From the NCBI GenBank assembly GCA_002841825.1, contig PHAZ01000003.1, forward strand, positions 3,039-67,038: a stretch of 64,000 nucleotides of DNA, in the 5' to 3' direction. Shown one piece after another: positions 27,500 through 29,905 of the stretch (position 1 is its first letter; each line of letters starts with the position of its first letter). Source of the DNA: Deltaproteobacteria bacterium HGW-Deltaproteobacteria-22. Its GTDB lineage: Bacteria > Myxococcota_A > Polyangia > HGW-17. The translations under genes were made by a program, and so were the position numbers. The notes under the pieces are model-generated. The model did not search any database, was not told the DNA's origin, and saw only the letters and a list, made by a program, of their open reading frames with translations.

Positions 27500-29905
27500 A
27501 TGTCCAAGAAGACGGTCCTGATCATCGAACAAGACGCAATTGTCGCTCGACAGATGACGGAAACCCTGGCTCAGATGGGATTCGAAGCCGTGACCAAGGA
27601 AGATGGCGTCTCCGGACTCCAGGCTGCCCGGGATCTCCTTCCCGACGCCATCGTCCTGTGCGTGGAAGTCCCGAAGATGAGCGGGTTTGCGGTTTGCCAT
27701 AAAATCAAGAAAATCAATGAACTGCAGGCGATTCCGCTGTTGCTGACCTCAGTGGAGGCGACCGAAGAGTCGTTCAACAAGCACAAGGAACTCAAGACCC
27801 GGGCCGACGCCTACCTGATCAAACCCTTCGAGATGTCCGCATTCCAGAAGGAATTCGAAGCCATGATGGGCCAGTCCAGCGGTGGCGCCGCGGGTGACAT
27901 GTCCGATGCCGACGGCTTCAACGCCATCCTGCAGGATATGGACGAACACCTGGATTCCGAGATCAGCGCGAGCCTGGACAACATCATCGACAGTTCGTTC
28001 TTCGAGCAGGGCAACGCCCCCGAGGCCATGGCTTCGCTGGAATTCATGCCCAGCGCCGAGATCGAGATCGTGGAAGACGAACCGGAGCCGGTCCCGGCCC
28101 CGGAGGCCGTCGAAGAGGAATCGTTCACCATGGATTCGGCGGGACCTCCGCCCAAGCCCGTCGACATCGTTGAGGAAGACTGGTCCAAGGACGCCGAGCC
28201 GGAGCCGGAGCCCGAGCCCGAGCCGGAGCCGGAGCCCGAGCCCGAGCCCGAGCCCGAGCCCGAGCCCGAGCCATCCAAGGCCAAGGGTGGCAAGTCCAAG
28301 CCCGGGACGCCTGTGGCGCCGATGGAGCCTGCCCCCGAGTCCCTGTCGGCCAGCCTCGGCCTCGACGATCTCGCCGAGTCGACCCCGGTTCGTTCGGACA
28401 CCTCGGTCATGGTGGAACTCGAGTCCCTGAAAAAGGACAAGGAGCGGCTGACGCGCGAGTTGACCAGCGCCAAGAGCGGACAGACCAGCTCCTTCTCGAA
28501 GGAGAAGGAATTCCTGAACCTGCGCGAGACGATCAACCAGAAGGAAAAGGCCATCATCGACCTTCGCGAAGAGGTTGATGGCAAGGAACAGGAAATTCTG
28601 AAGAAAAAGAACCGGATCCGCGAACTGGAGCGCGAGATCGCCGAGTGGAACACCAAGGGTCTGGATCTGGAGCGCCGGTCCGTCGAGCTCGACGAGGCGC
28701 TGGTGGGCGCCAACAGCACGATCTCCGAGCGTGACGGGCAGGTGGACAACCTGACCTCCCAGGTGGGGCGGTTGACCGCTGAAGTTGCGAAACTGAAGGC
28801 CGATTTGTCCATGCTCACCGACGCGAAGAAGGCCATCGAGGCCGAATACGCCGAGACGGTCGCGCGGATGGAGGCCGAACACGGGACCGAAGTGACGAAC
28901 CTCAACGCCGCTCACACCGACGAGGTCGCCGGGCTCAAGAGCGAGCATGCCACGTTGTTCTCGGCGACGCGGGCCGCCCACGAGGGTGAGGTCGCCGGAC
29001 TCCACGCTGACTACAAAGACCAACTCGTAAAGAAGCAGGCTGCCCACGAAGGCGAGGTCGCCGGACTGCATGCGGACTACAAAGACCAACTGGAGAAGAA
29101 GCAGGCCGCCCATGATGCGGAGCTGGCATCCACCAGGGCTGCCCACGAGCAGGCCATGGTCGCAGCCTCCGAGTTGCTGGAGTCGACCGTGGCCCAGCTT
29201 GCGGCCGAGCACGCGGGCGAACTGGCAGATCTGAAGCAGAAGCACACCGCGGAGTTTGCGGAACTGAAGGCCGGGCATGCGGCCGCCACCGAAGCCGCAT
29301 CCATGCGGCACGCCGCTGAGCTTGCGGAACTGAAGGCCGAGCATGCGGCCGCCATGGCGAATGCCGCCGGCGAGCACGCCGCGGCCACCGAAAAGGCGAC
29401 CGCCGAGCACGAAGCCGCCACGGCCACCGCGTCGGCCCGCCACGGGCAGGAGCTGGCCGCGCTGGTCAAGGCCCATCACGAACAGACCGCCGTCGCCACG
29501 CGCGAGCACGAGGGCGTCGTCGAGCCCCTGAAGGCCGAGCATGCCGCCGCCGCTGCTGTCGCTGCGGAAGAGGCCCGCTCGCTGCTGGAGACCACCGTGT
29601 CCGACTACGAGGGCAGGGTGGCCGACGCCATCGCCGCGCACGAGGCCACGAAGACGAAGTTGACCGGCGAGATCGCGGCGCTGACCTCCCAGAAGGAGGC
29701 CCTCGATGAGAAGGTGTTCAACCTGGAACAGACGCGGATGCAGAACGAGGCGAGCATCGATGATCTGAACAGCCAGGTGACGGACCTGACCGAGCAGTTG
29801 ACAGCGGCCACCGAGAAGATCACCGGCGACCAGGAACTGGTGGCCCAGACCCTCGCCTCCCTGCAGAAACTGTCCTCGGCGCTCAATGCCCGGTTTACGA
29901 ATTAG
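27500..29905 (+). CDS. FrzS/AglZ-like protein: atypical receiver domain, EP-repeat linker and long coiled coil
   Basis: ATG 27500 has AAGGAGG upstream. The N-terminal receiver fold is MSKKTVLIIEQD...DAIVLCVEVPKMSGF...PLLLTSV...ADAYLIKPF. Then come an acidic region, (EP)13, and about 520 aa of heptad/hendecad coiled coil. Confidence 0.75.
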   Translation: MSKKTVLIIEQDAIVARQMTETLAQMGFEAVTKEDGVSGLQAARDLLPDAIVLCVEVPKMSGFAVCHKIKKINELQAIPLLLTSVEATEESFNKHKELKTRADAYLIKPFEMSAFQKEFEAMMGQSSGGAAGDMSDADGFNAILQDMDEHLDSEISASLDNIIDSSFFEQGNAPEAMASLEFMPSAEIEIVEDEPEPVPAPEAVEEESFTMDSAGPPPKPVDIVEEDWSKDAEPEPEPEPEPEPEPEPEPEPEPEPEPSKAKGGKSKPGTPVAPMEPAPESLSASLGLDDLAESTPVRSDTSVMVELESLKKDKERLTRELTSAKSGQTSSFSKEKEFLNLRETINQKEKAIIDLREEVDGKEQEILKKKNRIRELEREIAEWNTKGLDLERRSVELDEALVGANSTISERDGQVDNLTSQVGRLTAEVAKLKADLSMLTDAKKAIEAEYAETVARMEAEHGTEVTNLNAAHTDEVAGLKSEHATLFSATRAAHEGEVAGLHADYKDQLVKKQAAHEGEVAGLHADYKDQLEKKQAAHDAELASTRAAHEQAMVAASELLESTVAQLAAEHAGELADLKQKHTAEFAELKAGHAAATEAASMRHAAELAELKAEHAAAMANAAGEHAAATEKATAEHEAATATASARHGQELAALVKAHHEQTAVATREHEGVVEPLKAEHAAAAAVAAEEARSLLETTVSDYEGRVADAIAAHEATKTKLTGEIAALTSQKEALDEKVFNLEQTRMQNEASIDDLNSQVTDLTEQLTAATEKITGDQELVAQTLASLQKLSSALNARFTN
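28196..28273 (+). repeat. Hexanucleotide microsatellite (GAGCCS)x13 encoding (Glu-Pro)13
   Basis: Counted directly: 13 consecutive GAGCC[G/C/A] units inside the FrzS-like gene. Confidence 0.95.
28976..29107 (+). repeat. In-frame 66-bp tandem duplication (2 copies, 22 aa each)
   Basis: Copies at 28976-29041 and 29042-29107 encode AHEGEVAGLHADYKDQL[V/E]KKQA twice, with a few synonymous or near-synonymous differences. Confidence 0.9.

Follow-up and report, generated by a model that had tools for sequence, protein, structure and literature searches.

The window, which is the whole 64,000-nucleotide stretch analysed here, comes from Deltaproteobacteria bacterium HGW-Deltaproteobacteria-22 (GenBank assembly GCA_002841825.1, contig PHAZ01000003.1, positions 3,039 to 67,038 of the forward strand), and contains a gene for a FrzS-like protein in which a long coiled-coil rod is interrupted by 22 consecutive 11-residue repeats (hendecads) with histidine at their centre. 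Residue numbers are counted throughout from the ATG at 27470, the first codon of the longest open reading frame (ORF). The features of the gene and of the encoded protein, given in amino acids (aa) where they refer to the protein, are as follows.

27470..29905, + strand: FrzS-like gene; the longest ORF, from the ATG at 27470, encodes 811 aa, and the ATG at 27500 gives 801 aa
27445..27499, + strand: upstream signals; promoter-like TTGACA-18-TATGCT at 27445-27474 and Shine-Dalgarno sequence AAGGAGG at 27488-27494, 5 nucleotides before the ATG at 27500
27500..27868, + strand: predicted pseudo-receiver domain, aa 11-133 (Pfam Response_reg 1.2e-12; PDB 2gkg, E 1.6e-12)
27869..28396, + strand: acidic, Pro-rich, putatively flexible linker, assigned from its sequence; AlphaFold2 (AF2) confidence is low at its end
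28194-28272, + strand: (PE)n dipeptide repeat (CCGAGC x13) in the linker, from a tandem-repeat scan
28397..28846, + strand: predicted heptad coiled coil 1, aa 310-459 (period 3.49 and 7.07; AF2 helix with a predicted local distance difference test score, pLDDT, of 85-91)
within heptad coil 1, + strand: SKEKEFLNLRETINQKEK motif, common to Myxococcus xanthus FrzS (BLAST to FrzS, E 2e-6, aa 332-431)
28847..29575, + strand: His-cored hendecad rod, aa 460-702, 22 repeats, 243 residues, consensus H-[EA]-x-[EA]-[VLI]-A-x-L-[KNR]-[AS]-[EA]
28972..29112, + strand: 66-bp tandem duplication found by Tandem Repeats Finder (TRF), two copies of the 22-residue double hendecad HEGEVAGLHADYKDQLxKKQAA
29241-29384, + strand: second, weaker 66-bp array of 22-residue double hendecad units (TRF)
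29576..29902, + strand: predicted C-terminal heptad coiled coil and tail, aa 703-811 (period 3.53)
29708-29731, + strand: EKVFNLEQ, invariant in the alignment columns of the family

Periodicity and composition of the histidine stripe

Translation of 28847-29542 gave, at every eleventh residue from aa 460 to aa 691, the series Y H H H H Y H Y H H L H H H H H H H H H H H. From Tyr460 (28847-28849) to His691 (29540-29542), 18 of the 22 stripe positions are His, three are Tyr (aa 460, 515 and 537) and one is Leu (aa 570), confirming the count made in the original prediction; the dipeptides that it had listed before each His also match, apart from 'AHH', where the in-phase residue is H669, preceded by KA and followed by H670. 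The register runs past His691 to H724 (29639-29641), exactly 33 residues further, and with this residue added to the 18, phase 0 holds 19 of the 22 His found between aa 460 and 746. The off-phase His are H512 and H534, both at phase 8 inside the duplicated 22-residue unit, and H670. When aa 460-702 were shuffled, none of 200,000 shuffles reached 18 His in one phase (maximum 10). A six-frame scan of the bacterium's own 4.4 Mb genome (12,072 ORFs of at least 150 aa) found no other ORF with more than 7 in-phase His, and the few others with in-phase His were out-of-frame Arg/His/Pro-rich junk with no credible run. Elsewhere in this genome, contig C163 has a 555-aa ORF (offset 8980, + strand) with five heptad-spaced His of the HARFEEE type, and contig C81 an ORF (offset 2, reverse-complement strand) with a HAAAEKS 7-mer repeat.

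Fourier analysis of aa 460-702 gave a core-residue period of 3.66 (11/3), against 3.49 and 3.53 in the flanking coils. The power of the 3.66 peak was 15.3 when LIVMF alone were counted as core and rose to 40.6 when His and Tyr were added, and the His are therefore in phase with the hydrophobic residues. An AF2 model of aa 460-746, made with six orthologues in the alignment, was one unbroken 285-residue helix (mean pLDDT 86.8), and a longer model of aa 300-811 was helical over aa 342-810 except for a low-confidence break at aa 533-539; both models are single chains, and hence silent on pairing. The hendecad character of the segment and the position of the His on a helix seam, in phase with the V/L/I and Leu positions, were thus borne out by the 3.66 period and by a single predicted helix of pLDDT about 87, and the segment is predicted to be helical, not disordered. 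If helical, the segment would be about 35-36 nm long at 0.15 nm per residue; the length of about 30 nm first proposed for the stripe was slightly low, as its 232 residues would span about 35 nm. That the segment is a real helical hendecad array with His on its seam is regarded as very probable.

Repeat composition was compiled from 257 repeats of ten family members. Position 0 of the repeat is His in 79%, Tyr in 10%, Asn in 3% and Ala in 3%, with Leu, Phe and Met also occurring; position 4 is V/L/I/M in 77%, position 7 is Leu in 60% and Ala in 19%, position 3 is Glu in 38%, and position 8 is Lys or Arg in 41%. Just 14 of 218 His fall on the other ten positions taken together. Of the amino acids that a single-nucleotide change can make from His, Tyr, Asn and Leu are found repeatedly at position 0, Gln and Arg once each, and Asp and Pro never. 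On an 11/3 helix with position 0 placed at 0 degrees, positions 4 and 7 lie at +33 and -33 degrees and positions 3 and 8 at -65 and +65 degrees. The His corresponds to 'h' in the a/d/h nomenclature, the sole residue of each repeat that is directed at the axis of the bundle itself (knobs-to-knobs; PMC9858780).

Conservation of the register and relationship to FrzS

A scan of the genome collection identified seven loci with orthologues, all in uncultured Myxococcota and 53-92% identical to the window protein; the metagenome-assembled genomes that carry them were labelled by their depositors Myxococcota, Deltaproteobacteria, Haliangium or Kofleriaceae. A homologue was found in 13 of the 23 genomes of the window's order, and few came from the phylum-wide genome sample, which is without Myxococcus. 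In the eight proteins of the genus nearly all His are in phase 0, and the EAEY anchor is separated from the EKVFNLEQ anchor by 265, 276, 287, 287, 287, 298, 320 or 331 aa, with all differences being multiples of 11. Every gap in a MAFFT alignment of the genus is likewise a multiple of 11, and 11 of its 67 invariant columns are in-phase His. Insertions and deletions (indels) of 11-66 residues lie at different sites of the rod in different orthologues, and the closest relative (L001, 92% identity) carries three more hendecads (+33 aa); judged from these alignments, close relatives are still gaining or losing repeats, and do so only by whole units. In two further genera and a second family, the in-phase His number 18 of 21, 22 of 30, 21 of 27, 26 of 36 and 10 of 10. 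Homologues from low to high GC were covered, and the AT-rich ones keep the phase with repeats such as HEEAINNLKSE. All full or partial orthologues examined, from three genera of the window's family and from the second family and at 30-92% identity, keep the His phase.

These comparisons bear on an explanation raised in the original prediction, namely that the repeats are a recent amplification in which the His register is a by-product of copying, without selection. Two local 66-bp duplications detected by TRF and a repeat number that differs at 92% identity speak for it, and the first 66-bp unit is single-copy in L002, L006 and L007. Yet in the DNA the repetition is confined to these two short stretches, the phase is kept down to about 30% identity and at very different GC, with in-phase His among the invariant columns, and His is excluded from the other ten positions. 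The reading fails on the orthologue comparison and is rejected, with almost no likelihood left to it; because the phase persists at such divergence and across GC, with so little repetition of the DNA itself, the stripe reflects strong selection on the protein and not fresh amplification.

The FrzS protein of M. xanthus DK1622 (P0061, 562 aa) was reached by a word search that started from the receiver sequence of 2gkg. It has six His and no stripe, and heptads throughout, with P(3.67) no higher than 1.5 in every 99-residue window. Among 120 close relatives of the FrzS receiver domain, FrzS entries included, none had more than 3 in-phase His. The stripe is hence not a feature of characterised FrzS: it is absent from M. 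xanthus FrzS and from the 119 further close receiver relatives. Ward et al. reportedly described FrzS in 2000 with up to 38 heptads, which agrees with the heptad periodicity found.

The likeness to M. xanthus FrzS (2GKG/2I6F) extends over a pseudo-receiver without the acceptor Asp, the His92/Tyr102 pair, a Pro-rich linker, a long C-terminal coil, the coil-start motif SKEKEFLNLRE..NQKEK, a neighbourhood with pilus genes and, compared by eye, the C-terminal tail, which is of the KI-x-x-D-x-E type like other FrzS-like tails. Within the rod, BLAST similarity to M. xanthus FrzS is significant only over aa 332-431 (E 2e-6), and the tail is alike by eye only. The two differ in that the window protein has a 243-residue His-cored hendecad insert and FrzS has none. 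Three FrzS-like proteins of other Myxococcota (G355/L011, P0178 and P0185) share the heptad-hendecad-heptad plan with few or no His at the axis position; in the first (L011, G355:C22:7800-11200; 786 aa, from a 10.3 Mb genome), aa 422-608 consist of twelve [R/S/K]DEAVAAAKxx repeats followed by five His-cored ones. By this comparison the hendecad insert is older and more widespread than the His core, which it predates or outlasts, because such relatives have the hendecads with few or no axis-position His.

In the N-terminal domain, 2gkg (the FrzS pseudo-receiver) was the second-best match among solved structures and the best among pseudo-receivers. The phospho-acceptor Asp is replaced by Cys64 (VLCVEVP aligned to FrzS VLAVDL in 2gkg), and H105 and Y115 align to FrzS H92 and Y102 (fnkHkelktradaYlikP versus faqHrklkahadeYvakP), a pair that is essential for the function of M. 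xanthus FrzS (PMC1974792). A word-based search with aa 1-460 returned only 12 proteins, and was probably swamped by PE-repeat words. The copy number of the (PE)n repeat varies among close orthologues (L001, L003), and more distant ones have PA/PV-rich repeats instead. The + frame is coding by its codon-position GC pattern (GC at third codon positions, GC3, 0.83), a test not passed by the long antisense ORFs. The ATG at 27500 is the probable true start, because AAGGAGG precedes it, the ATG at 27470 falls within the promoter-like -10 box, and the orthologues P0002 and P0003, like M. xanthus FrzS, begin at the equivalent MSxK.

The genes around the FrzS-like gene in the window are given below.

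19456-22337 (- strand) and 22430-27431: upstream of the FrzS-like gene, a pilS-like kinase (PAS, HisKA, HATPase) and pilC (T2SSF), then a 168-aa protein, an ABC exporter, a TPR protein and a 206-aa protein
29886-33911, + strand: directly downstream of the FrzS-like gene, an IPT/TIG-domain protein and an IgGFc_binding-domain protein

The order conserved in the genus is pilS-like kinase, pilC, orf168, (ABC exporter, TPR protein), 206-aa protein, FrzS-like, IPT/TIG and IgGFc-binding-like. The upstream part, in which the 168-aa protein is small and secreted-looking, is kept in L002, L004 and L006, and the IPT/TIG and IgGFc_binding pair follows the gene in every locus long enough (L001, L002, L004-L007). 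No pilB, pilT or pilA was identified among the ORFs scanned at 10066-41186. The neighbourhood would fit a pilus-related role, without being proof of one, and is the one indirect hint at polar localisation and SgmX docking.

Proposed packing of the hendecad rod

By its receiver, linker and coil the protein is classed as a FrzS-like scaffold. M. xanthus FrzS is a polar beacon that docks SgmX and activates type IV pili, and its coiled coil is sufficient by itself for localisation to the pole and in E. coli builds periodic assemblies (PMC9811614). The window protein would be a polar scaffold of this type from an uncultured myxobacterium, in which a floppy linker of Pro and Glu joins a phosphorylation-dead receiver to a long coiled-coil rod. 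For the hendecad segment we infer pairing between chains, together with its orientation, its oligomeric state and a role as spacer or in assembly. The reading preferred here, to which we give an even chance, is that of a stiff rod, serving as a spacer or for self-assembly, that varies in length by fixed steps and has His or Tyr as the central core residue of an inter-chain bundle. That the segment forms an inter-chain bundle is the likely part of this reading; that the bundle is parallel and in register is somewhat less than evenly balanced; and that a response to pH or metal is used physiologically is doubtful.

In such a bundle the hendecad helices would run straight, with no supercoil, and three residues per hendecad would face the partner: V/L/I at +4, Leu/Ala at +7 and the axis-pointing His between them. 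Because it would be continuous with the flanking heptad coils, the bundle would most simply be parallel and in register. The length of the rod would be set in 11-residue steps (1.65 nm) between the SgmX-docking receiver and the pole-targeting coil, and whole-hendecad indels would be harmless anywhere because both identical, in-register chains would carry them. The neutral His/Tyr rings would form polar layers in the core and so fix register and strand number, like the buried Asn of leucine zippers, and would incidentally give the seam a capacity to titrate and to bind metal. Chemically, a response to pH or metal is plausible from the sequence, in which the His is flanked by Glu at -1 and +3. 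Metal ligation cannot, on the repeat composition, be the sole constraint at position 0, because Tyr (10%), Asn, Leu and Phe also occupy it.

Several points weigh against this reading. Many repeats (e.g. HAAATEKAAAE) have only Ala or Thr at both flanking core positions, and the hydrophobic drive to pair would therefore be weak there. In a crude count, inter-helix salt bridges favour the parallel arrangement only slightly, and not in every orthologue. Twelve repeats of the homologue G355 have Arg, Lys or Ser at position 0, which is therefore not obligatorily buried in all relatives, and no solved structure resembles the segment in sequence. By analogy with the rule described for hendecad coils, a bulky axis His is awkward in a symmetric parallel dimer, and more than two strands or an interdigitating, zipper-like packing would therefore be expected: the axis-pointing residue clashes in dimers unless it is small, and otherwise more strands are needed (PMC9858780).

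Among known hendecad systems, Scy and FilP of Streptomyces are likewise long bacterial cytoskeletal or polarity rods with heptads followed by hendecads, and their helices, like those in the hendecad part of the EG peripheral stalk of the A-ATPase (PMC3293630), run almost parallel without supercoiling. The axis position of Scy and FilP is Ala (PMC9858780), whereas the position is His or Tyr in 89% of the repeats here and Ala in 3%; the unusual point, as far as the sequences go, is His/Tyr at an axis position that is reserved for Ala in dimers. The 11-mer helices of apolipoproteins, perilipins and LEA proteins share the 11-residue periodicity and, in places, a 22-residue super-repeat, but the window protein has no match to these families, a different charge layout and its His in the centre of the apolar face. 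In leucine zippers, polar layers buried in the core (Asn16 of GCN4 is one) set register and strand number at the expense of stability. The rod is like them in having a recurring polar core residue, and Asn is found at the His position in low-GC orthologues, but leucine zippers have one or few such layers and the rod has 18-26 consecutive ones.

The nearest described precedent in kind, by analogy, is the histidine zipper of Hartmann and Lupas, known from PDB 5LOS of Serendipita indica and from targets T1083, T1084 and T1087 of the fourteenth Critical Assessment of Structure Prediction (CASP14; PMC8616854). In these coiled coils repetitively arranged His interdigitate between the helices of antiparallel hairpins, at interfaces within or between chains, most His are replaced by Tyr in one member, and the authors suggest metal scavenging as the function (PMC8616854). 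Applied to the rod, the hendecads would pair in an antiparallel or staggered way, between dimers or within a folded-back chain, with the His/Tyr rings meshing as zipper teeth do above small Ala/Thr neighbours, and bundle into a polar lattice that may bind metal, a reading that we consider unlikely. The rod shares with the zippers a helical fold, repetitive His at a helix-helix interface and Tyr as the replacement, which is also the main substitute here, and many of its repeats have, apart from His, only Ala or Thr; interdigitation would remove the knobs-to-knobs clash of the bulky residue (PMC9858780), the longer single-chain AF2 model does break the helix at aa 533-539, at low confidence, and FrzS rods self-assemble (PMC9811614). 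On the other side, the described zippers are all hairpins, the three CASP14 targets being antiparallel homodimers, whereas the segment here lies, at about 36 nm, between heptad coils in an 800-residue cytoplasmic rod. Zipper repeats were compared here by their description; the segment has no similar PDB chain at E<=10, and AF2, which predicted the known zippers well in CASP14, gave one straight 285-residue helix with no hairpin. A fixed intramolecular hairpin would be thrown out of balance by indels of 11-66 residues at differing sites, the heptad coils on either side imply a parallel dimer that is incompatible with antiparallel pairing in the same chain pair, and the acidic flank of the seam (Glu at positions 3 and 10) would face itself if the helices were antiparallel. 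The straight AF2 helix and the scattered indels argue against an intramolecular hairpin, and not against antiparallel pairing between chains.

Other readings dispense with a bundle. The original prediction had offered a coiled coil or an amphipathic 11-mer helix; the hendecad coil is favoured by the present data, and an amphipathic surface helix of the apolipoprotein, perilipin, synuclein or LEA kind, lying on membrane or lipid at the pole with its His at the interface, appears improbable. The 11/3 periodicity is a hallmark of such helices, unrelated His-hendecad proteins have sub-threshold Pfam Apolipoprotein matches (P0009 at 1.3e-17, P0004, P0030), and a narrow apolar face also speaks for this reading; the window protein, however, has no Apolipoprotein, LEA or perilipin match in Pfam even at E<=1, Glu lies on one side and Lys on the other where lipid-binding class A helices have basic residues on both, insertion into lipid is disfavoured by a polar His in the middle of the apolar face, and the segment is continuous with two heptad coils. 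Equally improbable is an unpaired spacer in the form of a stable single alpha-helix (SAH), with an exposed ladder of His for partners or metals. A single long AF2 helix, richness in Ala, Glu and Lys, repeats without large hydrophobics and the charged or Ser residues at position 0 of G355 would suit it, but SAH domains are without a stripe as strong as the 3.66 one formed here by V/L/I/M (77%) and Leu (60%) in phase with His, the residues that replace His at position 0 are mostly Tyr, Ala or hydrophobic and not charged, and single-chain AF2 cannot show pairing either way. An array of phospho-acceptor His of the HPt or HisKA-like H-box kind (H-E-x-x-L), forming a phosphorelay with the receiver of the same protein, is suggested by that receiver and by the superficial likeness of H-x-x-E-L-x-x-L to an H-box. 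It is rejected as having next to no likelihood: there is no HisKA or Hpt match in Pfam, the receiver is without the acceptor Asp, and the His, which lie on the packing stripe, are freely replaced by Tyr, Asn and Leu.

The motif beyond the family

An exhaustive HMMER search with aa 440-811 against 1.84 billion representatives returned only 52 matches, including the family members P0002 and P0007. Many of the 52 are unrelated proteins with helical runs of [H/Y]-x-x-E-[ILV]-x-x-L-[KNR]-x-E: a 2,358-aa surface protein that combines GA modules with DUF285, a fungal Mcp5/Num1-like PH-domain protein, proteins of Yarrowia and Diplodia, two DUF2357 proteins, a TbpB-like protein and another receiver-plus-rod protein (P0053). 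Runs of 7-17 in-phase His were found in P0004, P0005, P0011, P0012, P0020, P0030, P0035, P0045, P0052 and P0053, with strict His/Tyr alternation in P0035, and several unrelated carriers have sub-threshold Pfam FBF1 and Apolipoprotein matches. P0006 and P0024 were discarded as spurious, being Pro/Gly-rich 11-mers. By its distribution the motif looks like a structural solution that recurs, probably through convergence.

Searches for a structural counterpart were negative or marginal. No PDB chain matched aa 460-724 in sequence at E<=10; a profile of 36 four-hendecad blocks gave only marginal matches of 1-2 repeats in the PDB, in DRC4/GAS8, PLC-beta and a WD40 protein; and Foldseek of the AF2 model against the PDB returned generic coiled coils only (best E 0.1). 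No description of a His stripe was found in the literature on hendecads or 11-residue repeats with histidine, on hendecads in Myxococcus and on FrzS. To judge from the carriers listed, His/Tyr hendecads may be a general repeat type without prior description. What is new here is the His-cored hendecad rod in a FrzS-type protein; hendecad coils and histidine zippers were already known.

A wider proposal, put forward as rather speculative, is that [H/Y]-x-x-E-[ILV]-x-x-L-[KNR]-x-E hendecads are a distinct type of coiled coil that arose repeatedly in bacteria and eukaryotes, with an axial ladder of rings switchable by pH or metal. If so, a straight bundle would have its axis filled by imidazole or phenol rings, one per 1.65 nm, and its assembly could be switched by pH, Zn, Ni or Cu. 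Protein engineering could also use such rods as scaffolds, straight, quantised in length and with metal-binding rings at regular intervals, and a structure would either extend the histidine-zipper class to long rods or show a new packing solution; with the motif present in unrelated bacterial and fungal proteins, the answer would reach beyond the myxobacteria. For FrzS, how the coiled coil finds the pole and self-assembles is a "standing question" (PMC9811614), and the conserved, chemically addressable seam offers a handle in vitro that could be titrated, metal-loaded, mutated or cross-linked at 1.65 nm intervals. Were the proposal true, the assembly of a FrzS-like polar scaffold would be coupled to the metal or pH state of the cell.

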